The notes: generated by a model from the letters alone, not told the origin. A stretch of DNA of 40,784 nt from an uncultured Candidatus Saccharibacteria bacterium (GCA_964609765.1 CAZSSD010000001.1:1-40784), one strand, 5' to 3'. Counted from the first letter of the stretch, positions 1,423-40,386 are shown. A program made the numbers and translations.

Positions 1423-2049
1423 ATGGCCAAGATGATACTGGGTACCAAGCTAAATATGTCGCAGACGTTTGATGCCACTGGCCGGGTTGTGCCGGTGACC
1501 GTAGTTCAAGCTGGGCCCGTAATCGTGGCGCAGGTTAAAAAGAAAGACAGCAAGGATAAGTATGGCGCCGTTCAAGTTGGTTTCGGCAAAAAGAGGAATC
1601 CAAGCAAAGCCATGGCCGGCCACGCTAAGGATTTAGGTGGTTTTAAACATATGCGCGAATTCCGCGTTGCTGGTGATGAGAATTTTGAGGTCGGCCAGGT
1701 ACTTTCTGCCGCGCAGTTCGAGGTGGGTGATTATGTTGATGTGCAGGGAGTTATGAAGGGTCGGGGTTTTACCGGTCCGGTTAAGCGATATAATTTTCGG
1801 GGCGCGCCCAAGACCCATGGACACGACCATCCCCGCGCTGTCGGTTCTATTGGCCAGCGTTTTCCGCAGCATACTCTTAAAGGCCGCCGCATGGCCGGCC
1901 GTATGGGCGGCCATAATATTACAGTTAAGAATTTAGAAGTCATTGAAGTCGATGGCAAGCGCAATTTAATTGCCGTTAAAGGCACGGTGCCTGGCGCCAA
2001 CGGCGGCTTGCTTAAAATAACGCAAAGTCGCAAATCACGTAACGCGTAG
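1423..2049 (+). CDS. rplC: 50S ribosomal protein L3
   Basis: MILGTKLNMSQTFD...GKGFTGPVKRYNF motif plus synteny. Confidence 0.97.
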   Translation: MAKMILGTKLNMSQTFDATGRVVPVTVVQAGPVIVAQVKKKDSKDKYGAVQVGFGKKRNPSKAMAGHAKDLGGFKHMREFRVAGDENFEVGQVLSAAQFEVGDYVDVQGVMKGRGFTGPVKRYNFRGAPKTHGHDHPRAVGSIGQRFPQHTLKGRRMAGRMGGHNITVKNLEVIEVDGKRNLIAVKGTVPGANGGLLKITQSRKSRNA

Positions 2050-2059
2050 CACGTAACAT

Positions 2060-2716: not shown

Positions 2717-2995
2717 ATGAGCGTACTCGTTAAACCAATTATTTCAGAAAAGGCCGGCAGCTTAACTAAATTAGGGAAGTACGTTTTTGAAGTAACGCGC
2801 AAGGCCACCGCTTCCGAGGTCAAGAAGGAAATAGAAAAGGTTTATAAAGTTAAAGTCGTTTCCGTTAACACAATTGTCGTGGCCGGTAAAAATCGCCGTT
2901 ATGGCCGAAGTGTCGGCAGAACCAGCGACCGCAAGAAGGCAGTGGTCACGCTCGTATCCGGTCAAACCATTGAAGGTATAAGCGAACCCGCATAA
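2717..2995 (+). CDS. rplW: 50S ribosomal protein L23
   Basis: ISEKA...YVFEV...ASEVKKEIEKVYKVKVVSVNT motif plus synteny. Confidence 0.95.
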   Translation: MSVLVKPIISEKAGSLTKLGKYVFEVTRKATASEVKKEIEKVYKVKVVSVNTIVVAGKNRRYGRSVGRTSDRKKAVVTLVSGQTIEGISEPA

Positions 2996-3009
2996 AAGGT
3001 TGAAATCTT

Positions 3010-3131
3010 AAATCCTAATTTCTAAATCCTAAATAATGTCCAAATTACAAGTTCAAAATTCAAAACGTTTCAGTAATTCGGATTTTGGATTTGGTGTTTA
3101 TTTGGAATTTAGAGTTTCTAATTTAGGATTT
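3010..3131 (+). repeat. AT-rich long imperfect hairpin element, copy A
   Basis: The terminal arms are aaatcctaa (3010-3018) and ttaggattt (3123-3131), with further internal complementary blocks. It is 122 nt long, the same length as copy B and roughly 80-85% identical to it by eye. Confidence 0.8.
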
Positions 3132-3141
3132 GGAGCGTAAG

Positions 3142-3221
3142 AACCTGCCCGCGGCGGGCAGAACCTTGCGGCGAGAGGTTTCAGCCTTCGGCTGACCTTC
3201 GGAGCCCCAAGGCGCCGTAAG
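3142..3221 (+). repeat. GC-rich structured module, copy 1 (74 nt plus one copy of the flanking CGTAAG)
   Basis: It is flanked by CGTAAG at 3136-3141 and 3216-3221. It contains the perfect hairpin ctgcccgc-g-gcgggcag (3145-3161) and a 9-bp outer stem cttgcggcg/cgccgtaag (3165-3173/3213-3221). Positions 3136-3229 are 94/94 identical to 5967-6060. Confidence 0.85.
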
Positions 3222-3227
3222 CGACAT

Positions 3228-4064
3228 ATGGCTATTAAAGTTTACAAACCAACATCAGCAGGTCGCCGCATCTCTTCGGTTTTGGATACTTCCCACCTAA
3301 CCAAGAAAAAGCCGGAGAAGAGTTTGATTATGCGCAAGAAGAATTCGGCGGGCCGAAACAACACCGGTACCATTACGGTACGCCACCGCGGCGGCGGCGC
3401 GCGCAAACTTATCAGGATAGTTGATAATAAGCGCGAGAAGTTAAATGTGCCGGCCAGAGTAACAGCTTTGGAGTACGATCCCAATCGTTCCGCCAGTTTG
3501 ATGCTTTTAACATATGCCGACGGCGAAAAGCGTTACAGTATTGCTCCGGTCGGCGTTTCCGTAAACCAGACAGTTTTGTCCGGCCAGCGCGTTGATGTTA
3601 GGCCCGGTAATCGCATGGCGCTTACCAATATGCCGCTCGGTACTTTTATCCATGATATAGAAATGGCACCGGGCCGCGGCGGCAAAATTGCGCGCAGCGC
3701 CGGCAGCTACGCTATTTTACAAGCTGTCGAAGCCGGCTTCGCTTTGCTCAAGATGCCATCCGGTGAAATCAGAAAGGTGCCCGCTGGCGGTTTTGCTTCG
3801 ATTGGTCAAGTCAGCAATTCCGACTGGCAGAATGTGCGTTGGGGCAAAGCTGGCCGGACCCGGCACCGCGGTTTTAGACCGACCGTGCTCGGTAAGTCAA
3901 TGAATCCGGTTGATCACCGCCATGGTGGCGGTGAAGGCCATTCGCCGATTGGTTTGAAGCGGCCGGTTACGCCTTGGGGTAAGCCGGCTTTGGGCGTGAA
4001 AACGCGCAATAAGACGAAGGCCTCTAATAAATTTATTGTTAAGCGCAGGCCAAAAGGTAAGTAG
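3228..4064 (+). CDS. rplB: 50S ribosomal protein L2
   Basis: RHRGGGARK...[13 protein letters not shown] motifs plus synteny. Confidence 0.98.
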
Positions 4065-4066
4065 GT

Positions 4067-4399
4067 ATGAGCAGAAGTTTAAAGAAAGGTCCTTTTGCGG
4101 ATGCAAAGTTAATGAAGAAGGTGTTGGCCGCCAAAGCCGCAGGCGGCAAGAGCACGATTAAAACATGGTCGCGCGATTCTATGGTTTTTCCAGAAATGGT
4201 TGGTTTAACTATTGCCGTGCATAATGGCAAGACCCATGTTCCGGTTTTTATTACCGAGAATATGGTTGGCCACCATCTGGGCGAGTTTGCGCCTACGCGC
4301 AAGTTTGTCGGACATGGTGGCAAGATGGCCAAGGCTCAAGAAGCATCCGCGACGGCGACTGCCGCCGCACCGGCACCAGCCGCGGAAGCAAAGAAATAA
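4067..4399 (+). CDS. rpsS: 30S ribosomal protein S19 (Ala-rich C-terminal tail)
   Basis: SRSLKKGPF...[31 protein letters not shown] motif. Confidence 0.97.
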
Positions 4400-4406
4400 T
4401 TGAATT

Positions 4407-4994
4407 ATGCCTAAGTCAAAGCCCGCAGAATTAAATAGTGAACCAAAGAAGCGCGCGCTCGTTTCCGCCCGCGTTGTTGGCGTTCATATTTCGCCGCGCA
4501 AATCAAGATTGGTGGCCGATTTAATCCGCGGCCAGTTTGCGGCGGAGGCCGTGGCTAGCTTGCAGCACTTGCCCAAACGAGCGGCTAAGCCGATTTTGAA
4601 ACTTCTACTTTCCGCCATTGCTAACGCCGAGCACAATTTGAAGCTACAGAAGGAAAACCTGAAGATTAATAAGATTACGGTTGACCAGGGTCCCAAGATA
4701 AAACGTTTCCAACCGCGCGCCTATGGCCGCGCCGGCGAGATACGTCGGCCCACCAGCCATATTTTTATCACCCTCGAGGAAGTGGCTGCGGTATCCAAGA
4801 AGGGTAAAAAATTCGCATTTCCAATTATATCCCGCCGGGTTCGCAAGGAAAAAGTTGAACATGACCACAAGCATGATGACAAAGACGAAAAGCGGGGCCA
4901 GATGCCAGGCGAAGAGCCGAAAGAAGTTAAGCCCAAGAGAGCTTTCTTTGGCGGTCGTAAAAATATATTAACTCGTAAGGGCGGAGAAAAGTAA
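4407..4994 (+). CDS. rplV: 50S ribosomal protein L22 with long charged C-terminal extension
   Basis: The core matches ISPRKSRLVADLIRG...PRAYGRAGEIRRPTSHI. It is followed by ~65 extra residues rich in K/E/D/H. Confidence 0.93.
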   Translation: MPKSKPAELNSEPKKRALVSARVVGVHISPRKSRLVADLIRGQFAAEAVASLQHLPKRAAKPILKLLLSAIANAEHNLKLQKENLKINKITVDQGPKIKRFQPRAYGRAGEIRRPTSHIFITLEEVAAVSKKGKKFAFPIISRRVRKEKVEHDHKHDDKDEKRGQMPGEEPKEVKPKRAFFGGRKNILTRKGGEK

Positions 4995-5039
4995 AGCATG
5001 AATAAGCAACTACCAATGACCAATAATCAATTAATATTC

Positions 5040-5130
5040 AAGAACCGATCTGCAAATTTTTGGAATTCGAGATTTAAAATTTGTTTGGGATTTGGGATTT
5101 GGAGTTTGGAGATTGGAGCGTAAGCGACGT
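5040..5130 (+). repeat. Hairpin-family element, copy C (G/T-rich arm plus conserved tail, no GC module)
   Basis: The sequence tttgggatttgggatttggagtttggagattggagcgtaagcgacgtATG shares its 3' tail ggagcgtaag|cgac with copies A and B. It represents the unoccupied CGTAAG site. Confidence 0.6.
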
Positions 5131-5805
5131 ATGGGTCACAAAATTTCACCAACAAGTTTAAGATTAGACATTACCGAGAACTGGAAATCTCGCTGGTTTA
5201 GTCGTTTGCATGCCCGCGATGTTTTGAAGCAAGATCATCTAATCCGGGAATTTATTAAGGATAATTACAAGAAAGCTAATATTTTGGGGGTAGATATAGA
5301 GCGTACGGCCAATAATCTTCATATTATAATCCGCACGCCTCGTCCCGGTATCTTAATTGGCCGCGGCGGTAGCGGTGTCGAAGAAATGCGCAAAAAAGTA
5401 CAGAAGCTGGCTAAGCTTGCGGTCCCGCCCCGCGTGACTATTCCCACCGAAGACATTAATACTTTGGCCAATTCCGCCCAGGCTGTGGCTTCGAGTATTG
5501 CTGAACAGATGGAAAAGCGTCTGCCCTATCGCCGTGTTATTAAGCAGTCTTTGGACAATCTTATGCAGGGTCGAATCAAGGGCGCCAAAATTGCGGTCGG
5601 GGGCCGGCTCGACGGCGGGGACATTGCGCGCACGGAGTCTTTGCAAAAAGGCAAGCTGCCTTTACACACGCTCCGCGCTAATATAGATTTTGCGCGCGCT
5701 ACCGCTTTTACCACTTATGGTACCGTTGGCGTCAAGGTTTGGGTTTACAAGGGTGATGTATTGGCAAAGTCGTCTAACGAAAAAACGTCTCTGCCGTCGC
5801 GATAG
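5131..5805 (+). CDS. rpsC: 30S ribosomal protein S3
   Basis: MGHKISPTSLRL starts at the ATG at 5131. The ORF-track start at 5092 is a TTG inside the repeat element. KH and S3-C motifs (GILIGRGGSGVEE, GAKIAVGGRL) are present. Confidence 0.95.
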   Translation: MGHKISPTSLRLDITENWKSRWFSRLHARDVLKQDHLIREFIKDNYKKANILGVDIERTANNLHIIIRTPRPGILIGRGGSGVEEMRKKVQKLAKLAVPPRVTIPTEDINTLANSAQAVASSIAEQMEKRLPYRRVIKQSLDNLMQGRIKGAKIAVGGRLDGGDIARTESLQKGKLPLHTLRANIDFARATAFTTYGTVGVKVWVYKGDVLAKSSNEKTSLPSR

Positions 5806-5840
5806 TGAGAAGGGTAAAGGTTGTCAATCAATTAAATTCT

Positions 5841-5962
5841 AAATCCTAATTTTTAAATCCTAAACAATGTTAAAATTCCAATTTCAAAATTTAAAACTTT
5901 TCCGAAATTCAGATTTTGGATTTGGAATTTATTTAGGTTTTAGAGTTTGTAATTTAGGATTT
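5841..5962 (+). repeat. AT-rich long imperfect hairpin element, copy B
   Basis: The terminal arms are aaatcctaa (5841-5849) and ttaggattt (5954-5962). It is 122 nt and a paralogue of copy A. Confidence 0.8.
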
Positions 5963-5972
5963 GGAACGTAAG

Positions 5973-6052
5973 AACCTGCCCGCGGCGGGCAGAACCTTGC
6001 GGCGAGAGGTTTCAGCCTTCGGCTGACCTTCGGAGCCCCAAGGCGCCGTAAG
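5973..6052 (+). repeat. GC-rich structured module, copy 2
   Basis: It is flanked by CGTAAG at 5967-5972 and 6047-6052. Positions 5967-6060 are identical to 3136-3229. Confidence 0.85.
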
Positions 6053-6060
6053 CGACATAT

Positions 6061-6468
6061 ATGTTAATTCCCAAAAAGGTCAAACATCGAAAACATCATA
6101 GAGGCCATACCCGCGGCAAGGCTACCAGCGGTACTGAAATCGCTTTTGGTTCGTATGGTTTAAAAGCCATGGAGAATGGCTGGCTGTCTAGTCGACAAAT
6201 AGAAGCCGCTCGGCGCGCCATGACCCGCAGTATTCAGAGAGGCGGTAAAATTTGGATTCGCGTTTTTCCGGATAAGCCCATTACTTTTCATGGTAATGAA
6301 TCAGTGATGGGTGGCGGCAAGGGCAGTGTTGAATATTTTGTCGCCCCGGTTTTAAAGGGCCGTGTTTTGTTCGAAATGGAAGGCGTGGCTGTGGAAGCTG
6401 CGGCCGAAGCCATGCGCTTGGCTGCCCATAAACTCCCCCTCAAGACTAAATTTTTAAGTAATAAGTAG
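6061..6468 (+). CDS. rplP: 50S ribosomal protein L16
   Basis: [15 protein letters not shown]...[12 protein letters not shown]...[14 protein letters not shown] motif. Confidence 0.98.
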
Positions 6469-6471
6469 AAT

Positions 6472-6699
6472 ATGGCCAAAGCTTTGGACGAATTAAAAGA
6501 ATTGCAGAATTTGAATGGCGCGCAATTGCAGGCTAAACTTCGCGAGCTGCGCGAAAAATTGCGCGACCTGTCTTTCCGTACCCGGGCTGACGAAATTCGT
6601 GATATGCATGAGTTTGGGAATACCAGAAAAAGCATTGCCAGAGTGTTGACTATGCTCAATAAGAAAAGTAAGATTAACCCGCCCTCGCGGAAAGCCTAG
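6472..6699 (+). CDS. rpmC: 50S ribosomal protein L29
   Basis: LKELQNLNGAQLQAKLRELREKL pattern. The position between rplP and rpsQ fits. Confidence 0.9.
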   Translation: MAKALDELKELQNLNGAQLQAKLRELREKLRDLSFRTRADEIRDMHEFGNTRKSIARVLTMLNKKSKINPPSRKA

Positions 6700-6730
6700 C
6701 GCGGGCGTGCAGGTTATTTAATGTAAAAAT

Positions 6731-6997
6731 ATGTCAGATACTACTGATCAAAAAGAGAATAAGAAAGTACACGGTGCTTTTGTGGGCACAGTCGTTTCCG
6801 ATAAGGCGAATAAGACGCGCGTGGTTGAAATTAGGCAGCGCCGCCGGCACCCCAAATATAAGAAGATTTACACCATTACGAAGCGTTTCCACGTGCATGA
6901 TCCCGAAAATGCCTACAAGGTCGGCGATAAGGTAAATTTCATCCCAACCCGACCGTATTCCAAGACGAAGAAGTTTATCATTATCGGAAAAGTATAA
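6731..6997 (+). CDS. rpsQ: 30S ribosomal protein S17
   Basis: GTVVSDKANKTRVVEI...HPKYKKIYTITKRFHVHD motif. Confidence 0.95.
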   Translation: MSDTTDQKENKKVHGAFVGTVVSDKANKTRVVEIRQRRRHPKYKKIYTITKRFHVHDPENAYKVGDKVNFIPTRPYSKTKKFIIIGKV

Positions 6998-7003
6998 TAT
7001 TAT

Positions 7004-7094
7004 GAAATCTCAAATCTCAAGCTACAAATCACAAACAATGCTGGAATTCAGATTTTCTGGTTTGTATTTTGGGATTTGTTATTTGTAATTTAGG
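7004..7094 (+). repeat. Hairpin-family element, copy D
   Basis: The A/C-rich arm is gaaatctcaaatctcaagctacaaatcacaaac and the G/T-rich arm is tttgtattttgggatttgttatttgtaattt. The tail gggcgttagcgatatatATG resembles the A/B/C tails. Confidence 0.6.
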
Positions 7095-7109
7095 GCGTTA
7101 GCGATATAT

Positions 7110-7481
7110 ATGCTGCAGATCAGAAGTTATCTAAAAGTTGCTGACAACACTGGCGCGAAAGAAATCGCCGTTTTCTCCGTATCTGGCCGCAACAAGAGAA
7201 GGTATGCCCGTTTAGGCGATGTTGTGCGCGCTTCAGTTAAAGCCGCTACGCCCAATGGACAGGTTAAAAAGGGTGATTCGGTCCACGCAGTCATTGTCCG
7301 AACCCGCAAAGAAGTTAGGCGCAAGGACGGTTCTTATATCCGTTTTGATGAAAATGCCGCGGTTTTGGTCAATGCTCAAACTAAAGAGCCCCGGGGCACG
7401 CGTATTTTTGGCCCCATCCCCCGAGAAGTAAGAGACGCTGGTTTTGCCAAGATCGCGTCATTGGCCCCGGAGGTTATCTAA
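7110..7481 (+). CDS. rplN: 50S ribosomal protein L14
   Basis: [18 protein letters not shown]...AVIVRTRKE...[10 protein letters not shown] motif. Confidence 0.98.
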
Positions 7482-8385: not shown

Positions 8386-8571
8386 ATGGCTACTAAAGCA
8401 CAGGTTGCAAAATCGAAGAGAACTCCTAAATACAGCACGCGTCTGGTACGGCGCTGTTGGCGGTGCGGACGTAAGCGCAGCTACATAAGGGATTTCGGTA
8501 TTTGCCGTATTTGTTTTAGAGAATTAGCAAGCCGCGGAGAAATCCCCGGCATTAAAAAGGCGAGCTGGTAA
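8386..8571 (+). CDS. rpsN: 30S ribosomal protein S14, short zinc-binding (type Z) form
   Basis: The product is 61 aa with CWRCGR...CRIC (two CxxC pairs). The position between rplE and rpsH fits. Confidence 0.95.
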
Positions 8572-8605
8572 TTTTGCATTTTGATTTTTGAATTTTGATT
8601 TTACT

Positions 8606-8998
8606 ATGACGGATCCAATTTCAGACATGTTAACCAGAATCAGGAACTCTGTTTCCGTAGCGAAGACTACGGTGGTTATGCCTTACAGTAAATTTAAGCA
8701 TAACCTCGCACGGCTTTTGGTTACCGAGGGCTGGCTGACGGAGGTTTTTGTACGCGAGCAGGCTGGTAAGAAAATGTTGGGTATGGGTATTAAGTACGGT
8801 CCCAATCGCCGCGCCGTTATTTCTGGCTTAAAGAGGGTGAGTAAGCCGGGGCAAAGAATTTATGCCAATCATAAGGAAATTCCGCGCGCCCGAAGCGGTG
8901 TTGGTGTTACGATTGTTTCAACTTCAAAAGGTCTGATGACGGATAGGCAAGCGTATCGTGAAAAATTAGGCGGCGAAGTAATCGCGCAAATTTGGTAA
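8606..8998 (+). CDS. rpsH: 30S ribosomal protein S8
   Basis: MTDPISDMLTRIRN starts at the ATG at 8606. The ORF-track start at 8588 is a TTG in the spacer. Confidence 0.95.
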   Translation: MTDPISDMLTRIRNSVSVAKTTVVMPYSKFKHNLARLLVTEGWLTEVFVREQAGKKMLGMGIKYGPNRRAVISGLKRVSKPGQRIYANHKEIPRARSGVGVTIVSTSKGLMTDRQAYREKLGGEVIAQIW

Positions 8999-13026: not shown

Positions 13027-13095
13027 GCCCTCCTAAGTTTGTTACGTGCTACGTGTTACGCGTAATGTGGCTGTAGTAGATTTAGGAGGGTTTTG

Positions 13096-15806: not shown

Positions 15807-16191
15807 AATTTTAGCTCTCGATATTGGCGAACAAAGAACAGGCTTTGCCATCACTGATGAGGGGCAAATTATCGCTCAAGCCTTACCGTTTACGGCGCCC
15901 CTTGCTAATTTGAATAAGGGAATAGCTGAAATACAAAAGGATTATGGATTTAATAAAATAGTAATAGGCCTGCCCAAGACCATGTCTGGTTTAGAGGGGC
16001 CGCAGGCAAGCAAAGTGCGAGAGGTCGGCCAATCCTTAGCCAAAGAATTTAATTGCCCGATAGAATATTTTGACGAAAGATTAACAACAAAACAAGCGAG
16101 TAATTTGATGGCCAAAAGTGGTAATATCCCGTTAGATTCTTTGGCCGCGCAACAAATATTGGAACAATACCTTCAGTCGCGTAACACATAA
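15799..16191 (+). CDS. ruvX: YqgF/RuvX-type putative pre-16S rRNA nuclease / Holliday junction resolvase-like protein
   Basis: ILALDIGEQRTGFAITD...IVIGLPKTMSG...DERLTT motifs. The start overlaps the stop of the upstream gene by 8 nt. Confidence 0.9.
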   Translation: MSRILALDIGEQRTGFAITDEGQIIAQALPFTAPLANLNKGIAEIQKDYGFNKIVIGLPKTMSGLEGPQASKVREVGQSLAKEFNCPIEYFDERLTTKQASNLMAKSGNIPLDSLAAQQILEQYLQSRNT

Positions 16192-16247
16192 CACGTAACA
16201 TGAAACAGAAAGGAAAATAAAAAAAACACGTTTGCGCATCACGTTTT

Positions 16248-18110: not shown

Positions 18111-18571
18111 CCATTTATATCGCTTCCGATCATGGCGGTTTTAAAATGAAGGAGACTGTCAGGGATTATTTGGCCGCGCAAGGCTTGGCCGTTGTCGATT
18201 TGGGCCCGCAGGCTTTGAATCCGGCCGATGATTATCCTCATTATGCCTTTGCCGTAGCCCAAGCCGTGGCATCTGATGAAGATGCCTTGGGCATCTTGCT
18301 TTGCCGCTCTGGGCAGGGTGTGAGCATAGTGGCCAATAAAGTGGATGGCGTGCGGGCGGCCTTGGCTTGGCATGAAGAGGGAGCCGAAGCGGGCCGGCGC
18401 GATGATCATGCCAATGTTTTAAGCTTGCCAAGCGATTATATCAGCGAGGATCAGGCTAAAAAAATTGTTGATAAGTGGCTGGCCACAGAACCGGGCAAAG
18501 CGGAGAGGTATTTGCGAAGAATAAGGGAGATAAGAGCAATTGAAGAAAATAATAAAAATTATTCTAATTGA
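18107..18571 (+). CDS. rpiB: Ribose-5-phosphate isomerase B (RpiB/LacAB family)
   Basis: IYIASDHGGFKMKE...GILLCRSGQGVSIVANK motifs. There is an ATGA overlap with tpiA. Confidence 0.92.
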   Translation: MTIYIASDHGGFKMKETVRDYLAAQGLAVVDLGPQALNPADDYPHYAFAVAQAVASDEDALGILLCRSGQGVSIVANKVDGVRAALAWHEEGAEAGRRDDHANVLSLPSDYISEDQAKKIVDKWLATEPGKAERYLRRIREIRAIEENNKNYSN

Positions 18572-18635
18572 CCTAAATGTTCTAATTATTCTAAATTTTT
18601 TACTCATCATTCTTTAGGTTAATTAGGTCAATTAG
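18564..18635 (+). repeat. AT-rich inverted repeat in the rpiB-rpe spacer
   Basis: Perfect 13-bp arms ctaattgacctaa (18564-18576) and ttaggtcaattag (18623-18635). The first arm contains the rpiB stop codon. Confidence 0.75.
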
Positions 18636-18649
18636 AAATCAGGTTAATT

Positions 18650-20186: not shown

Positions 20187-21923
20187 ATGTCCTTTTTATT
20201 TTTTGTAGTTGCCATTATTTTGCTAATTTGGATCGTCAGGTTAAGCGGTCGCGTTGACCAACTTGAGAGGCGGATTTTTAGTGGCGGCCCAGTGCCCGGG
20301 ATACCGGTGGCGCCGGCCACGCCGCCACCGCCACCGGTGACGAGTTTGGCTGGCACAGCCTCGCCCATACCAATGCCGCAAATGCAGCCAAAATCTGATT
20401 TTGATTTTGCGGGTTGGCTGACCAAAGTGGGTGCTCTTGCCCTTATTTTGGGAGTCGGTTTTTTCTTAAAGTACGCCATTGATCAAGGTTGGATAGGCAT
20501 TGCCGGCCGTGTTGTTATCGGCCTTTTGATCGGCGCTTTTTTGGTAATTTTGTCTGAACTGTGGCGGGATAAATATAAAATGTATGCCCAAGCCCTTGGC
20601 GGCGGCGGTTTAGCTATCCTTTACTTCACGGTTTTTGCCGCCTCTCAATTTTACGCCTTGGTGCCGAGTATGGTGGGGGCAGGTTTAGCCTTGGCCGTTT
20701 CCGCCCTGGCTGTTTTCTTGGCCCATAAACGGGCATCGCTTGTTTTTGCCGCTTTAGCCGTGATCGGCGGTTATTTGTCGCCCATTATGTTTGAGGTTAA
20801 TCAGGCCAGTGCCATGACCGCATTGATCTTCCTGACCGTATTGAATTTGGCGGTGATCACAACACTTTTAAAAAAATATTGGCTGGGTCTGGTTTTTCTG
20901 GCTTTTGCCGGATCAGCCATCAATTATATTATCTGGGCTGTTGAAAACACCGGCGCTTTTGCGGTCATGCCCGCGCTTACCTTCCTGCTTATTTCCGCGG
21001 CCATTTTTATGCTTTTTGCGACGGCTTTTTATCGCCAAGAAGCAGATAATGCAGCCGCTGATTCAGGTGACGCGGCGGCCGGCGCTTATTATGCGTTGGT
21101 TGGGTTTTTCCACTTGATTGCCGTTTATGAGGCATTAAGCCCCGGCCAGGAAGGCTATCTTTTGCCCGCCGGACTGGTTATTGCCGCTTTAAGCTTTTTA
21201 GCCTACGCCCTATTTAATAACCCAAAGCTGAAGATCGCGAGCTTTGCCCTGTCTTTGGTGGGCAGCGCTTCTGTTTTTGCCGCTTTGGCCTGGCAATTTG
21301 AGGGCAAAATACTCGACCTCTTTATTTTGGCTCTGGCGCTGGTTTTAGCTCTTCTCGGTTTTCTGTTCAGACGACAGGAGTTGAGGTTGTGGGGACTGGC
21401 CGCTCTAGTTTTGGCTTTGTTAATGGTCTTATTTGAAGACCGTGCCGGCACCAGCTTGTTCCTATTTAATTCCAAATTTGGCCTGATTGCCCTCATTATC
21501 GTGATTTTCGGGATTATGGAGTGGCTTTACCGGAACCAACCCACGCCGGATTTTGAAAAAGAAATGCCGGCGGCCGTGCGGATCGCCTGGGCGGGTTTGA
21601 TTTGGTATGGTATCTCTTCGGAAATTGGCGAGTATTTCAGCAGTTCGGTCAATGTGCGTAATTTATTGTTGAGTTTCTGGTGGCTGGCTTATGCTACCTT
21701 GCTTTTAATTTACGGTTCGATTAAGCTCGATCTTATTCTGCGAAGGACGGGTTTGGTGTTGCTCGCGTTTACGGTTTTAAAGGTGTTTTTGTACGACATT
21801 CAGACCCTGGATACTGTTTATAAGACCATTGCCTTTGTCGTGCTGGGCGTGATTTTGTTGACAATGGCTTTTACTTATCAAAAAAACAAGGAAAAAATTA
21901 AACATTTCTGGCAGGGCAATTAA
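20187..21923 (+). CDS. Polytopic membrane protein (DUF2339-like architecture)
   Basis: The product is 578 aa. It has an N-terminal TM helix, a short LERRI helix, a Pro-rich linker (PATPPPPPV), and then more than 12 hydrophobic helices. The family assignment is from memory of this architecture only. Confidence 0.6.
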   Translation: MSFLFFVVAIILLIWIVRLSGRVDQLERRIFSGGPVPGIPVAPATPPPPPVTSLAGTASPIPMPQMQPKSDFDFAGWLTKVGALALILGVGFFLKYAIDQGWIGIAGRVVIGLLIGAFLVILSELWRDKYKMYAQALGGGGLAILYFTVFAASQFYALVPSMVGAGLALAVSALAVFLAHKRASLVFAALAVIGGYLSPIMFEVNQASAMTALIFLTVLNLAVITTLLKKYWLGLVFLAFAGSAINYIIWAVENTGAFAVMPALTFLLISAAIFMLFATAFYRQEADNAAADSGDAAAGAYYALVGFFHLIAVYEALSPGQEGYLLPAGLVIAALSFLAYALFNNPKLKIASFALSLVGSASVFAALAWQFEGKILDLFILALALVLALLGFLFRRQELRLWGLAALVLALLMVLFEDRAGTSLFLFNSKFGLIALIIVIFGIMEWLYRNQPTPDFEKEMPAAVRIAWAGLIWYGISSEIGEYFSSSVNVRNLLLSFWWLAYATLLLIYGSIKLDLILRRTGLVLLAFTVLKVFLYDIQTLDTVYKTIAFVVLGVILLTMAFTYQKNKEKIKHFWQGN

Positions 21924-21928
21924 CGGGC

Positions 21929-22915
21929 ATGGCGAATAAAGAAAAAAAAGGATCCAAAAATAACACTGGGGCAGGTTTAGAAGAAGTGCCTACGCGCAAC
22001 GGTTACGGCGAAGGGCTTTTAGAGCTGGGTGAGACTGACAAAGACGTAGTTGTGCTTTCGGCCGATCTGGCCGAATCGACACGAGCCTACGCGTTTGGTA
22101 GTAAATATCCGGAAAGGTTTTTTGAAGTAGGCGTGGCCGAACAAAATATGATGGGTATCGCGGCCGGTTTGGCGCTTTCTGGTAAAATTCCCTTTGTCTC
22201 AAGCTATGCCACTTTTAGTCCCGGCCGCAATTGGGATCAGTTGCGCGTTTCGGTTTGCTACAGCCTTGCCAACGTTAAAATTGCCGGTAGCCATAGCGGT
22301 CTTTCGGTGGGGCCCGACGGCGCTACCCATCAGGCCTTAGAAGATATTGCCATTACCCGCGTGCTGCCTAATTTAACCGTGGTCGTGCCTTGCGATTACC
22401 ATGAGGCCAGGAAGTGCACCGTGGCGGCCGCTTCTCACAAAGGACCTCTTTATTTCCGCTTGGGTCGCGAAAAAACGCCGGTCATCACGGACGCCGATGC
22501 GCCTTTTGAAATAGGCAAAGCCGTCGTTTTTAGGGAAGGCGCGGATGTCACGATTATTGGCGCGGGCCCGTTATTATATGAGGCGCTGCTCGCGGCCGAG
22601 GCGCTCGCCCAAAAGGGCATCGAGGCGGCTGTGATCAATTGCCACACTATCAAACCGATTGATAAAAAAACAATCGTCGCCCACGCCAAAAAAAGCGGCG
22701 CGGTTGTGACCGTCGAGGAGCACCAGATTTACGGGGGCTTGGGCAGCGCCGTGGCCGAGGTGCTTGCGCAAGAATATCCGGTGCCTATGGAAATGGTGGC
22801 TGTCCCTGACCAGTTCGGCGAATCTGGCCAACCGCATGAGCTGCTCGAAAAGTTTCAATTGCTTTCACCGGACATTGCCAGAGCCGCGGAAAGGGCCATT
22901 GCCAGAAAACAGTAA
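21929..22915 (+). CDS. Transketolase, C-terminal (pyrimidine-binding) subunit
   Basis: FFEVGVAEQNMMGIAAGLA, GSHSGLSVGPDGATHQALEDIA, VVTVEEH motifs. Confidence 0.93.
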   Translation: MANKEKKGSKNNTGAGLEEVPTRNGYGEGLLELGETDKDVVVLSADLAESTRAYAFGSKYPERFFEVGVAEQNMMGIAAGLALSGKIPFVSSYATFSPGRNWDQLRVSVCYSLANVKIAGSHSGLSVGPDGATHQALEDIAITRVLPNLTVVVPCDYHEARKCTVAAASHKGPLYFRLGREKTPVITDADAPFEIGKAVVFREGADVTIIGAGPLLYEALLAAEALAQKGIEAAVINCHTIKPIDKKTIVAHAKKSGAVVTVEEHQIYGGLGSAVAEVLAQEYPVPMEMVAVPDQFGESGQPHELLEKFQLLSPDIARAAERAIARKQ

Positions 22916-31292: not shown

Positions 31293-33035
31293 ATGAAGCG
31301 GAAATGGATATTAAAGGAATCGGTCGGGGATGATGTTGTCACAAAGTTTCCGGGCTTACCCAAGGCACTTTTGCAAGTGCTTTTTAATCGCGGCTTAAAA
31401 GACAAAGAGTCTATCGATTTTTTCTTAAATCCGGTTTATGAAAATGAGATTTATAATCCAATGTTGCTGCCGGACATTAATCCGGGGGTAGAGCGTACGC
31501 TTGAGGCTATAAAAAATAAAGAAAAAATTACGGTTTATGCCGATTACGACGCGGACGCTGTTACGGCCGCGGCCGTAATGATTCGTACTTTGCGCGCGCT
31601 CGGCGCCGAAATTGATTATTACATTCCCGACCGCTTTGCCGAAGGCTATGGCATGAATGTGGAAGCAATGAGAGAAATTTCTAAGCGTGGTACAAAGCTT
31701 GTTATCACTGTCGACTGCGGTATTACGGCCGCTCCGGAGGTAGAAGCCGCCAGAGAGGTTGGCATGGATGTAGTTATTACCGATCACCATCACGTTCCTG
31801 ATGAATTGCCCAAAGCCGTGGCCGTTATTAATCCCCACCGCAAGGACAGTATTTACCCGTGTAAAGATCTAACCGGCGTAGGCGTGGCTTTTAAATTTGC
31901 CCAGGCTGTTTTGAAAGAAGCGCGGCCCTATTTCGCTAAAGCTTCGCAGGACGTGCCCCCAGAGGGGTACGAAAAGTGGTTGCTAGATTTTGTGGCTATC
32001 GGCACTGTGGCCGATTGCCAGAGCTTAATGTCCGAAAACAGAATTTTGGTAAAATACGGTTTGAAAGTTTTGCAAAAAACACGCTGGGTTGGACTTAAAG
32101 CCTTAATTTCGGTTTCGGGCGCGGCCGATAAGGCCTTTACCACCGGCACCATCGGTTTTCAGTTGGCGCCGCGCATCAACGCGGCCGGCCGGCTTGCCCA
32201 CGCTGATTTGGCTCTGAAGTTGCTTCTAACTGACGATGACTTGGCAGCGGCAGACTTGGCCCTCCAGCTTGAAAATTTAAATCGAAAAAGGCAACAGCTG
32301 ACGGAAAGTATTCTTTCTGAAGCGCGAGAGCAAGTTGAGGAACAGCTCAAGCATCAAAAGATCTTGCTGGCTGCGAGCAGCGCCTGGCCCAAAGGGGTGG
32401 TGGGGTTGGTGGCCGGTAAACTTTCTGAAGAATTTTATCGGCCGGTTTTGGTGGCGGCTAAAGATGATGAGTTTGCCACCGGTTCCGCGCGCAGCATCCC
32501 GGGTTTTAATATTATTGAGGCGATCGGTTATGCCGGCGAGCATCTCGTAAAGTTTGGCGGACACGAAGCGGCAGCCGGATTTACTGTTGCGAACACCAAG
32601 TTGCATGATTTTTATCAAACCGTTTGCGGCTACGCGGACGTAAAATTTAGCGAAGATTCTCTAGAGCCGGTTTTGATGATTGATTGTGAGCTGTCGAATC
32701 CGCTGGAGTTTACTCTCGAATTTGCCGATATGGTGGAAGGCCTGGCGCCCTTTGGCCAAGGCAATCCGCGTCCGCACTTTTTGTTTAAAAATCTGAAAGT
32801 TGAGGATTTGCGCGCGGTCGGCCGCGAAGGCAAGCATGTCCAGCTGGTGGTTTCGCATCCGAATGCGGCAGGTAGCCGGTTGCGGGCCATCGCCTTTTCG
32901 CACGGCTATTTGGTTAAAGCCCTGGAAATAGGTGATAATATAGATATGGTAGGCGAAATAATGGTTGATAGTTGGAACGGCAATAGAAGGCTGCAGTTGA
33001 GGTTGGTGGATTGGCAAAAAATAGAAAAATCCTAA
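31293..33035 (+). CDS. recJ: Single-stranded-DNA-specific exonuclease RecJ
   Basis: DHH-family motifs DYDADAVT, ITVDCG, ITDHH, plus DHHA1 GGHEAAAG. Confidence 0.93.
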   Translation: MKRKWILKESVGDDVVTKFPGLPKALLQVLFNRGLKDKESIDFFLNPVYENEIYNPMLLPDINPGVERTLEAIKNKEKITVYADYDADAVTAAAVMIRTLRALGAEIDYYIPDRFAEGYGMNVEAMREISKRGTKLVITVDCGITAAPEVEAAREVGMDVVITDHHHVPDELPKAVAVINPHRKDSIYPCKDLTGVGVAFKFAQAVLKEARPYFAKASQDVPPEGYEKWLLDFVAIGTVADCQSLMSENRILVKYGLKVLQKTRWVGLKALISVSGAADKAFTTGTIGFQLAPRINAAGRLAHADLALKLLLTDDDLAAADLALQLENLNRKRQQLTESILSEAREQVEEQLKHQKILLAASSAWPKGVVGLVAGKLSEEFYRPVLVAAKDDEFATGSARSIPGFNIIEAIGYAGEHLVKFGGHEAAAGFTVANTKLHDFYQTVCGYADVKFSEDSLEPVLMIDCELSNPLEFTLEFADMVEGLAPFGQGNPRPHFLFKNLKVEDLRAVGREGKHVQLVVSHPNAAGSRLRAIAFSHGYLVKALEIGDNIDMVGEIMVDSWNGNRRLQLRLVDWQKIEKS

Positions 33036-33114
33036 ATCCTAAATAAATGCTAATGACCAAAATCCAAAACTATTTGAAATTTGTAATTTTGAATTTATTT
33101 AGAGCTTAGGATTT
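33027..33114 (+). repeat. Hairpin-family element, copy E
   Basis: Arms aaatcctaaatcctaaataaat (33027-33048) and atttatttagagcttaggattt (33093-33114) pair at 19/22 positions. The recJ stop codon (33033-33035) lies inside the left arm. Confidence 0.8.
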
Positions 33115-33138
33115 GATGCTTGGTTTTTAAAATAATTT

Positions 33139-39015: not shown

Positions 39016-39795
39016 ATGACCAGAGTCTTGGTTTTTGGTGTTTTTGATCTATTGCATCAAGGGCACGTAAATTTTTTAAGGCAAGCCAAAAAACTTGGCG
39101 ATTTTTTAATTGTCTCGGTTGCCCGCGACGAGAACGTTAAAAGGTCGAAAGGACATTGGCCAGTATTAGATGAACAAGAAAGATTGCATAATGTAAGAAA
39201 TATTACTTTTGTAGACGAAGTTTTACTGGGCGGCACTGATTATAAAAATGCGATAATGAGCATTAAAAAGATTAAGCCCGATATTGTTGCCTTAGGCTAT
39301 GACCAAAAGCCCTATCTTACCAAAACCGATAAAGGCTTAGAAAAATTATTGGGGGTAAAAGTTGTTCGTTTGCGTCCGCATCGGGCAAAAAGCCAAAAAA
39401 CTGATTATTTACGCTTTATTGGCGGTCGGGTAGAGCAAAACTTGGGCCGCGGCACGCGGTTGGGTTTTCCAACTGTTAATATTGCGGCGCCAAAAAATAT
39501 ACCGGAAGGAATATATATTGCCGGTGTTTCTGCGCCGCGCTTGCTTAAAAATCATCCGGCTTTGGCTTTTATTGGCGCGGCCGTGACTTTTGGGGAGAGC
39601 AAAAAACGTTTAGAGGCTTATCTATTGGATTGGACCGGTGATTTATCGGGAAGAAAGGTTTGTGTAGAATTGGTTCGTAAAATTCGCGATAATAAGAAAT
39701 TCAGATCAGCTAAAGATTTAGTTAAGCAGATGAAAAAAGACGAGCAAGCCGCCCGTAAATTTTTTATGCACTCACCAATTCGCGCGAATTGGTGA
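39016..39795 (+). CDS. ribF: Compact bifunctional FMN adenylyltransferase / riboflavin kinase (RibF-like)
   Basis: The N-terminal nucleotidyltransferase motif is FGVFDLLHQGHVNFL. The C-terminal flavokinase domain carries GRGTRLGFPTVNI...LEAYLLDWTGDLSGRKV...RDNKKFRSAKDLVKQMKKD. The last 8 codons and the stop lie in palindrome copy 1. Confidence 0.8.
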   Translation: MTRVLVFGVFDLLHQGHVNFLRQAKKLGDFLIVSVARDENVKRSKGHWPVLDEQERLHNVRNITFVDEVLLGGTDYKNAIMSIKKIKPDIVALGYDQKPYLTKTDKGLEKLLGVKVVRLRPHRAKSQKTDYLRFIGGRVEQNLGRGTRLGFPTVNIAAPKNIPEGIYIAGVSAPRLLKNHPALAFIGAAVTFGESKKRLEAYLLDWTGDLSGRKVCVELVRKIRDNKKFRSAKDLVKQMKKDEQAARKFFMHSPIRANW

Positions 39796-39796
39796 G
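39771..39796. repeat. Perfect 26-nt palindrome, copy 1
   Basis: ctcaccaattcgc|gcgaattggtgag. The 31 nt at 39769-39799 are identical to 40345-40375. Confidence 0.95.
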
Positions 39797-39802
39797 TAGC
39801 GC

Positions 39803-40081: not shown

Positions 40082-40113
40082 CCACTAACCAATTCGCGCG
40101 AATTGGTTAGTGG
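40082..40113. repeat. Perfect 32-nt palindrome, copy 2
   Basis: ccactaaccaattcgc|gcgaattggttagtgg begins immediately after the ArsR stop. It shares the 20-nt core accaattcgcgcgaattggt with copies 1 and 3. The arm differences are compensatory. Confidence 0.95.
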
Positions 40114-40144: not shown

Positions 40145-40160
40145 ATATAAAATTGAATAT

Positions 40161-40334
40161 TTCCTTCAGGGCGGGGTGAGCCGAAAGGCAAGTCCCCACC
40201 GGCGGTGACAATCCGCGAGCGAGCCAAAAGGCGAGCAGGATCTGGTGGAATTCCAGAATCGACGGTATAGTCCGGATGAAAGAAGGAAACGCTTATGAGC
40301 GTTTTTCGCCCTGCTTAAAATTAAGCAGGTTTTT
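40161..40334 (+). promoter_or_regulatory. FMN riboswitch (RFN element) with terminator-type expression platform
   Basis: P1 is ttccttc/gaaggaa (40161-40167/40282-40288). The conserved cores are agggcggggtga...tccccaccggcggt, atccgcgagc and gatctggtggaattccagaatcgacggtatagtccggatg. Two hairpin plus T-run units follow (40287-40306 and 40310-40334). Confidence 0.9.
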
Positions 40335-40346
40335 ATTAAGGTTACA

Positions 40347-40372
40347 CTCACCAATTCGCGCGAATTGGTGAG
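40347..40372. repeat. Perfect 26-nt palindrome, copy 3
   Basis: It is identical to copy 1. It lies between the riboswitch terminators and the transporter ATG. Confidence 0.95.
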
Positions 40373-40386
40373 TAGTAGAAAAAGAT

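Follow-up and report, generated by a model that had tools for sequence, protein, structure and literature searches.

Hairpins with seven-base-repeat arms between ribosomal protein genes of an ultra-small groundwater bacterium: probable gene-less relatives of rRNA intervening sequences

The nature and movement of rRNA intervening sequences (IVSs) and of their S23p open reading frames (ORFs) have been an open question since about 1990, as stated in the passages of a Coxiella study that deal with them (PMC4990558). According to the same passages, the IVS of the Coxiella 23S gene has a 28-bp terminal-repeat stem that is cut by RNase III, bears an S23p ORF, and carries two or three tandem GACAGAT heptamers, depending on the strain, before the ORF start (PMC4990558). 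The rRNA genes of the Candidate Phyla Radiation (CPR) contain 23S_rRNA_IVP ORFs as well as short ORF-less insertions (PMC11270868), and the sections of both papers on such insertions place none of them between protein genes (PMC4990558; PMC11270868). No published link of S23p/IVP to intergenic heptamer hairpins was found in the main text of the open-access literature searched. Here we describe 40,784 nucleotides of DNA (the window, i.e., the whole stretch analyzed) from an uncultured Candidatus Saccharibacteria bacterium (GCA_964609765.1, CAZSSD010000001.1:1-40784), in which five elements, termed copies A-E, lie between genes, four of them within the S10/spc ribosomal protein operon. We consider it moderately probable that these copies are gene-less, stem-only derivatives of a mobile IVS-type palindromic foldback element, which would be co-transcribed with the neighboring genes and probably cut by RNase III.

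Other repeat classes also have to be kept in mind. Repetitive extragenic palindromic (REP) sequences, with the related BIME and REPIN forms and their REP-associated tyrosine transposases (RAYTs), are extragenic, imperfect long hairpins that are present in many copies in small gaps and are co-transcribed with flanking genes. Miniature inverted-repeat transposable elements (MITEs) and repeats of the Correia/ERIC type are short non-autonomous derivatives with inverted ends that are transcribed as hairpins, and some Correia elements are substrates of RNase III. Heptamer repeats are treated in parts of three further papers: GGGNATC repeats of Xanthomonas and Nostoc, those of Xanthomonas lying mostly between aligned ORFs and being mostly transcribed (PMC4692102), paired MTYCTGA sites of Geobacter metallireducens, class 3 of which is drawn as strand-switching pairs (PMC2700814), and TAACTGA repeats of marine Beggiatoaceae (PMC4679880).

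Contig C1 of genome G000 (800 kb in 46 contigs, 93% complete) begins with the window. The genome belongs to an ultra-small groundwater bacterium whose nearest named relative is a Candidatus Doudnabacteria metagenome-assembled genome. It was compared with genomes of its order (41 with G000 included; 38 relatives for operon junctions and 13 for 23S genes), among which G001 denotes the sister genus and other G numbers the remaining genomes, while C numbers denote contigs of G000. Pfam confirms L23, L2, L22, S3, L16, S17, L14, RecJ and the RNase H-like protein at the sites given in the initial annotation, and the lengths reported there for four swollen junctions proved exact (rplW-rplB 232 nt, rplV-rpsC 136 nt, rpsC-rplP 255 nt, rpsQ-rplN 112 nt); the remaining four junctions of the same stretch measure only 2, 7, 3, and 31 nt. 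The fifth copy, in the recJ gap, and the pairing of 19 of the 22 outer positions of its arms were reproduced as well. When the minimum free energy (MFE) was set against dinucleotide shuffles and expressed as a z-score, the + strand of A, B, D, and E, with 30-51 Watson-Crick pairs, folded at z of -2.9 to -4.7. The description of every copy as a long hairpin of an A/C-rich and a G/T-rich arm thus holds for these four, whereas C, which has one arm, fails the long-stem test. The hairpin stems contain 22-31% GC, and the copies and their tails are arranged as follows.

3003-3131, + strand: copy A, AT-rich foldback hairpin in rplW-rplB (MFE -37.2, z -4.7; 43 Watson-Crick, 7 G·T, and 5 A·C pairs)
3132-3141, + strand: first part of the tail of A, decamer GGAGCGTAAG
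3142-3221, + strand: GC-rich module nested in the tail of A, a separate element with the direct repeat CGTAAG at both sides
3222-3227, + strand: last part of the tail of A, CGACAT, abutting the rplB ATG at 3228
5040-5116, + strand: copy C, 5'-truncated, in rplV-rpsC (profile positions 39-146 only; z -1.4; 10 G·T and 0 A·C)
5115-5130, + strand: tail of C, uninterrupted GGAGCGTAAGCGACGT, abutting the rpsC ATG at 5131
5832-5971, + strand: copy B, foldback hairpin in rpsC-rplP, with CTAAACAATG kept in the 5' arm (z -3.1)
5973-6052, + strand: second nested GC-rich module, followed by CGACATAT and then by the rplP ATG at 6061
6999-7089, + strand: copy D, foldback hairpin in rpsQ-rplN, units AAATCTC/AAATCAC (z -3.7; 34 Watson-Crick, 5 G·T, and 1 A·C)
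7093-7109, + strand: tail of D, diverged GGGCGTTAGCGATATAT, abutting the rplN ATG at 7110
33027-33114, + strand: copy E, foldback hairpin between recJ and the RNase H-like gene (z -2.9; 30 Watson-Crick, 3 G·T, and 8 A·C)

The arms of copy A are runs of the heptamers AAATCYT and RGATTTR, and its inner 5' arm keeps CTAAATAATG, a vestigial ORF start. Copies A and B, described earlier as related, are collinear and gapless across 227 nt at 91% identity. Each of them is two things, an AT-rich hairpin and a separate GC-rich module of about 80 nt nested in the tail, in the order hairpin, decamer (GGAACGTAAG in B where A has GGAGCGTAAG), module closed by the second CGTAAG, CGACAT(AT), and start codon. 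Copy C comprises the G/T-rich 3' arm and the tail only, and we regard it as a truncated half element because its upstream part (about 5010-5030) is of another, CCAATGACC-type unit. Copy E begins within the last codons of the recJ call and has no tail; its 42-nt arms are 74% complementary, and the antisense fold is favored (MFE -19.5 on the + strand vs. -25.9 on the - strand). The tail common to A-D, GGAGCGTAAG...CGAC(A/G)T, stops 0-2 nt 5' of the ATG, in agreement with the initial annotation. Contigs assembled from four groundwater DNA runs of one study agree exactly with B, C, and D (a contig of run X1 covers 4631-6057 without difference, and copy D is spanned by contigs of runs X1, X3, and X4), and no empty-site form is present among them. 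The summed contig depth is 61-631 in hairpin bins vs. about 3-40 in most other bins, with a few coding bins at 100-170, and matching contigs diverge at 3003, 5834, and 7005, which are left element ends.

The relation to IVS-type elements is seen in four ORFs of G000 that belong to PF05635 (23S_rRNA_IVP / S23p, a four-helix-bundle family). Two of them were scanned and match TIGR02436, the two on C25 have a Pfam match, and the nearest solved chain is 2rld_A (E = 1e-14). All four stand between inverted heptamer arms, as read from printed alignments and flanks without a shuffle control. The copy on C6 (8536-8991) joins AAATCC arms with a PF05635 ORF that has an in-frame TAG where the copies of G021 and G033 have W; these two genomes hold further ORF-bearing copies, to be set beside A-E, which have no ORF. 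Positions 1-35 of copy A are 97% identical to the right arm of the C6 element, and copy E is 83.7% identical over 43 nt to its left arm. Aligned with the ORF-bearing element of G021, copies A and B and the copy on C30 match in two collinear blocks, the intervening 350 nt or so being absent: in the left block, positions 8-74 of the short copies equal 24-93 of the full element, whose ORF has its ATG at about 66, and in the right block positions 85/96/101 to 137-142 equal 441-457 to 493-497. An ATG after CTAAAYAA is found in one arm only in A, B, D, E, and the copies on C30 and C41 (in D by eye). As far as these alignments tell, the family is derived from, or has common descent with, IVS-type ORF-bearing elements.

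The ORF-bearing form is also IVS-like in that tandem heptamers adjoin the ORF start. PF05635 is present in 32 of the 41 genomes, with up to 14 members per genome. Within gene strings this form is strictly sense-oriented: all 28 ORFs (24 in relatives and four in G000) run in the direction of the upstream gene and 26 of them in that of both neighbors, against baselines of 71 and 54%, although the loci are not phylogenetically independent.

Hairpin inserts of the same style reside in the 23S genes of three of the 13 relatives (G011, 111 nt; G024, 79 nt; G032, 66 nt). The insert of G011 takes the place of a helix loop at position ~583 of the Rfam large-subunit rRNA model, which is probably helix 25, a classical intervening-sequence site. 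One of the spacers between genes of G011 holds a relative of this insert at 75% identity. In G024, the units that build the arms of the insert are met again next to a remnant of PF05635 and ahead of gene starts. Copies A-E themselves lie between protein genes, so they do not occupy an rRNA helix loop as IVSs do.

The repeat family is dispersed, as the initial annotation had allowed in speaking of a MITE-like repeat. An nhmmer search with a profile made from four copies (E <= 1e-3) gives 26 loci in G000, which are not specific to the operon and all lie between ORF calls (18 co-directional, two convergent, four divergent, and two at contig ends); an unfiltered list of folds in the intergenic regions of the genome, with 383 clusters, was too unspecific. 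Usually only a few bases separate the element from the flanking stop and start codons. Fourteen of the 41 genomes, G000 included and scattered across five of six families, contain similar DNA, and there is turnover between genera. In G001, a hairpin with its tail is present solely at rplW-rplB (110 nt), whereas the other three junctions are short (36, 18, and 9 nt), so that three of the four operon insertions are missing and only one of the junctions is matched in the sister genus. The units of the G001 hairpin are CTAATTT, not CTAAATC, and the tail is the same, with GAAGCGATAGCGACAT before the ATG. Among the 38 relatives, 71 of the 256 measured junctions are 60-300 nt long, at varying places, and at least one such junction is present in 26 genomes.

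Inserts are alike within one genome, and the unit sequence differs between genomes while the architecture is constant. The arms have a period of seven. Self-identity at lag 7 is 0.385 in 75 junction spacers vs. 0.275 in shuffles, and 29 of the 75 reach their maximum at this lag. Within G000, 35-nt windows whose lag-7 identity is 60% or more occur in 66 of the 445 intergenic regions of at least 60 nt, the corresponding numbers for lags 4-6 and 8-11 being 2-13. The unit types AAATCCT, CCAATGA, CTAATTG, ACGTAAC, and AATTTTC coexist in this one genome. Whole units differ between subfamilies, yet both arms stay complementary, which fits a constraint on the palindrome without telling DNA from RNA.

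The course of events that we favor is the following. The full form consists of a long stem, with inverted runs of 7-nt units as arms, and a loop with a small 23S_rRNA_IVP / S23p ORF; the short form would have lost the ORF and kept the stem, with the ORF start codon also retained in A, B, D, and E. Copies would have spread into gaps between genes, so that the element came to make up nearly the whole spacer. Transcription of the operon would then read through the elements, their arms would pair on the RNA as a long double-stranded stem, and RNase III would cut this stem and split the polycistronic mRNA, by analogy with the rRNA IVSs. For the subfamily of A-D, such a cut would leave the downstream cistron with the short conserved tail as its 5' end. 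The tie between the family and intervening sequences of the 23S rRNA type makes the RNase III target, one of the roles suggested in the initial annotation, a concrete lead. The mechanism of mobility, the co-transcription, the cleavage, and any benefit to the host are what we infer here.

Several points weigh against this model. The gene map behind it is crude and consists of 860 ORFs, chosen greedily by length with a minimum of 60 aa (coding density 89.8%). A target-site duplication could not be defined, as the filled junctions of G000 and the short ones of G001 share no alignable spacer. An autonomous, transposase-coding long form was not found, the long form encoding the PF05635 protein only; to our knowledge, this protein family has no known activity, nor do we know of a transposase-like partner for the elements. 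The arm alignment scores at the four ORFs of G000 are 52, 76, 38, and 31, and the top alignment of the fourth does not correspond to its arms; these were read from the printed flanks, as short runs of the ACGTAAC type (units of this type flank the PF05635 ORF on C16, 15150-15600). In the relatives, that short heptamer arms flank most of the 24 usual-sized ORFs is a reading of printed sequences, and a score test of flanking arms was passed by six of 28, with a control inflated by cross-matching of low-complexity arms. Plus/minus BLAST scores of the short copies to long elements are alike, so palindromic similarity does not fix their orientation. The number of expanded junctions follows the PF05635 count loosely (rho 0.25, p 0.12) and the count of Y1 transposases slightly better (rho 0.38, p 0.016, relatedness ignored), and G003, G030, and G040 have expanded junctions and no PF05635 match. 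Finally, the alignment of 17 copies, a test for covariation of the kind proposed in the initial annotation, contains no signal beyond the consensus: 82.3% of cells are paired vs. 82.9% with shuffled partners, and double-change pairs number nine vs. a shuffled mean of 7.7. With the partner displaced by one column, pairing drops to 59 or 52%, and because shuffled partners pair equally well, the pairing follows from the conserved columns.

A different explanation would be that the hairpins are host-selected RNA elements of the ribosomal protein operon, i.e., sites of processing, stability, or translation uncoupling, and their strandedness is central to it. The initial annotation deduced a common orientation of all copies from arm composition; this argument is void, as a palindrome reads alike on both strands, with the A/C-rich arm first on either of them, and only mismatches, loop, and tail are asymmetric. 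Judged by eye from the ATG mark of the ORF start and its close variants, about 10 copies are sense to the adjacent gene and three are antisense (C23 541, C19 9069, and C7 11196, the ATG being mutated in all three), so that both orientations exist. The mismatches were counted by aligning each locus to its own reverse complement with transitions scored neutrally, a sense G·T being a G·U in the mRNA strand and an antisense G·T an A·C on the sense strand. An excess of G·U-compatible mismatches on the sense strand, where the initial annotation had noted several, exists in A-D, where sense and antisense counts are 7/5 in A, 6/3 in B, 10/0 in C, and 5/1 in D (28 vs. 9 in total; A and B are 91% identical by shared ancestry, so their mismatches are not independent). 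It is lacking in E (3 vs. 8) and in the other loci: the 18 co-directional ones give 95 vs. 64, which becomes 52 vs. 55 once A-D and two short partial loci are left out. It is reversed in the ribosomal-operon hairpins of 24 relatives (121 vs. 192 over 56 palindromic junctions, i.e., those of the 71 with at least 18 Watson-Crick pairs), with 13 sense-biased junctions vs. 34 antisense-biased ones and, by genome, six vs. 14 with four ties. The excess of sense G·U is thus a local trait of A-D. The A·C excess over G·U on the mRNA strand of the relatives (p = 7e-5, copies not independent) suggests a strand-specific mutation bias or a selection that weakens mRNA hairpins, and 35 of their junctions fold more stably on the antisense strand and 21 on the sense strand, the two strands differing by no more than 1 kcal in another 15. 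Selection by the host would gain from the local excess, from the sense MFE being below the antisense MFE in all of A-D, from the conserved tail that ends at their start codons, from the hairpin with tail at rplW-rplB of G001, and from the position of the junctions before the rplB, rpsC, rplP, and rplN cistrons. However, three of these junctions are short in G001, the expanded places vary among the 38 relatives, the family also sits in convergent, divergent, and unrelated gaps, covariation is lacking, and a transcription-linked C-to-T change on the non-template strand would presumably give the same local bias; we therefore regard selection as RNA elements as unlikely. Rfam covariance models, none of which matches 2900-7200 at E <= 1, offer no known RNA family for these hairpins.

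Movement by a transposase of the RAYT type appears rather improbable. Long extragenic hairpins in dozens of copies are what REP/REPIN elements would look like, G000 has three Y1_Tnp ORFs of about 235 aa, the one ORF that was scanned gives a weak match to the REP-associated tyrosine transposase model (38.6 bits vs. a cut-off of 80), the number of Y1 genes among the genomes correlates with expanded junctions as given above, and in the absence of any match to reverse transcriptase (RT), DDE_Tnp_1, rve, or TnpB-type domains in the 93% complete genome, Y1 is the only recombinase candidate seen. Yet each Y1 gene lies between its own short GC-rich palindromes (cores GGGGTCGGATCC, GGAAGTCCGACTTCC, and GTACCGACGTCGGACGTCGGTAC), none between AT-rich heptamer arms. 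Only 15 of the 41 genomes gave a Y1_Tnp match; G001, G008, and G013, with three, six, and five expanded junctions, gave none, and neither did the majority of the genomes with the AAATCC family. That the arms keep strictly to a 7-nt period might instead speak for inverted arrays of DNA sites bound by a regulator or nucleoid protein, and the paired heptanucleotide sites of Geobacter are read as regulator-type protein-binding sites in the passages concerned (PMC2700814). At least four or five unrelated units coexist in the 800-kb genome, however, and would require as many binding proteins, the sites lie within operons and rRNA loops and not at promoters, and the units change between genomes while the architecture is the same; such arrays are very improbable. 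We give almost no credence to intrinsic terminators or attenuators inside the operon: the elements are stem-loops between genes and a T run follows E by about 10 nt (near 33125), whereas imperfect, AT-rich stems of 30-50 bp, the lack of a T tract after the 3' arm in A-D, and sites between essential co-transcribed ribosomal genes and also between divergent ones speak against this reading.

The GC-rich module of copies A and B is an element of its own. It is found at window 3142-3221 and 5973-6052, C30 4777-4856, C23 1565-1644, C27 9893-9977, C41 9-94 (- strand), C12 1-47, and C17 14298-14378 (- strand); an 86-nt query matches four loci at 100% and two more at 95-97%, besides a 47-nt piece that opens C12 and a partial copy. 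Its position is constant, between GGAGCGTAAG and CGACAT-ATG with the direct repeat CGTAAG as borders, and it precedes rplB and rplP as well as genes resembling rpsM and atpG and one further gene. The decamer GGAGCGTAAG also follows hairpins at window 5115, C30 4767, C23 1555, and C41 90 and, with one change, at window 5963. The core CUUCGGAGCCCCAAGGCG is kept in the module copies of G001 and C17. Since the outer stem (GCGGCG/CGCCGU and variants) and the inner hairpin vary by paired substitutions among copies of G000 and G001, the module looks like a real structured RNA, for which Rfam contains no match. The tail as a Shine-Dalgarno site was not supported: GGAGG precedes only 18 of 446 clear starts, the GGAG of the tail is 12 nt before the ATG, and with Shine-Dalgarno use so weak in G000 the tail cannot be called a ribosome-binding site (rRNA, 16S included, is absent from the assembly, and the anti-Shine-Dalgarno is unreadable). 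A tRNA-like nature of the tail was dropped as well, as neither the window nor six G001 loci contained a tRNA.

Other features related to the elements are the following.

18561-18638, strand not assigned: sister-subfamily hairpin of CTAATTG units with the same architecture (MFE -21.5), absent from the list of the initial annotation
8571-8609, + strand: ATTTTGN heptamers in a run with a single arm, at the small junction that comes next, nearly equal to the 36-nt rplV-rpsC spacer of G001
C10 15934-16641, C21 7488-8195, and C24 7055-7765: RAYT-like Y1 genes, flanking palindromes with a GTCGGA/TCCGAC core

Short repeats of ACGTAAC units are also present at window 2038-2058, 13040-13062, and 16178-16200. 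A near-perfect palindrome of 28-31 nt (ACTCACCAATTCGCGCGAATTGGTGAGT) occurs in three copies (window 39769-39799, 40083-40113, and 40345-40375), two of which bracket an FMN riboswitch at 40158-40291, the sole Rfam match in the window at gathering score. The L22 gene (window 4407-4994) encodes 195 aa, with the Pfam domain at residues 25-124 and a Lys/Glu-rich C-terminal extension of about 70 residues. The RNase III gene rnc of G000 is located on C7, with coordinates of 21643-22302 or 21628-22389 (- strand), and a hairpin-family copy (C7 21493-21622) comes directly after it, before the next gene. In the relatives, junctions above 300 nt (rplB-rpsS in five genomes) were considered as ORF-bearing elements and rejected, since they hold a lipoprotein-like gene instead (L027, L034, L043, L045, and L048 of G038, G024, G006, G019, and G037, respectively); its products have 154-313 aa, a signal peptide, a Cys, and the C-terminus FKFTK/FKLTK (LNVTE in L034). 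At rpsC-rplP, L014, L040, and L048 have in common a GC hairpin, CCCCG...CGGGGCG, just 5' of rplP, a candidate for a conserved L16 leader.

What is new here is that short and long forms of one arm family are found in one genome and match in two collinear blocks, that a conserved tail harbors a nested structured module, that the 23S genes of relatives contain hairpins of the same style, and that the G·U bias toward the sense strand is a local one, with the opposite bias in relatives. Short and long forms within a single small genome, operon copies, 23S look-alikes among its relatives, and clear gain and loss between sister genera together provide a handle on what IVSs are and how they move. The elements also bear on the expression of ribosomal protein operons in packed ultra-small genomes, as about a quarter of the junctions measured in the order are swollen, and on assembly, as such repeats break assemblies and several copies are at contig ends. 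A broader and distinctly tentative proposal, in our view conceivable though doubtful, is that IVSs would not be peculiar to rRNA. They would make up a general class of mobile foldbacks residing in transcribed DNA, the S23p/IVP protein would be the factor that belongs to them, and in Patescibacteria they would colonize mRNA operons as freely as rRNA. Their ORF-less stems would then act as RNase III sites that break the S10/spc transcript into separately stable pieces, and A-D would bring along a ready-made 5' leader made of tail and nested module.

How do the elements of G000 compare with the described systems? With the bacterial heptamer repeats they share the 7-nt unit and the intergenic position, whereas those repeats, as presented in the relevant sections, are direct or G-quadruplex-forming or are regulator sites, and no link to S23p ORFs or rRNA IVSs is drawn there (PMC4692102; PMC2700814; PMC4679880). 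The comparison extends to other families of extragenic palindromes. Like REP, BIME, and REPIN sequences, the G000 elements are extragenic, imperfect long hairpins in many copies and in small gaps, but their arms are tandem 7-mers and not a single REP palindrome, the RAYT-like genes go with other, GC-rich palindromes, and Y1 genes were not found in most hairpin-bearing genomes. They resemble MITEs and Correia/ERIC repeats as short derivatives of a longer ORF-bearing element, with terminal inverted repeats at 26 dispersed loci, and differ from them in a long form without transposase and in filling their spacer completely, from stop codon to start codon; no target-site duplication was found, the filled and short junctions having no alignable spacer in common. 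From the rRNA IVSs they differ in lying between protein genes, four of them within the S10/spc operon, in their dozens of copies per 0.8-Mb genome, in their several unit subfamilies with whole arms made of heptamer runs, and in that excision by RNase III is for them a prediction only. Nevertheless, they have in common with the IVSs of Coxiella burnetii and Leptospira, as far as these are described in the passages cited, the terminal inverted repeats forming a long stem, a loop ORF of the same Pfam family, tandem heptamers before this ORF, ORF decay and ORF-less forms, and a sporadic distribution (PMC4990558), and hairpins of the same style reside in a 23S helix loop in relatives of G000.

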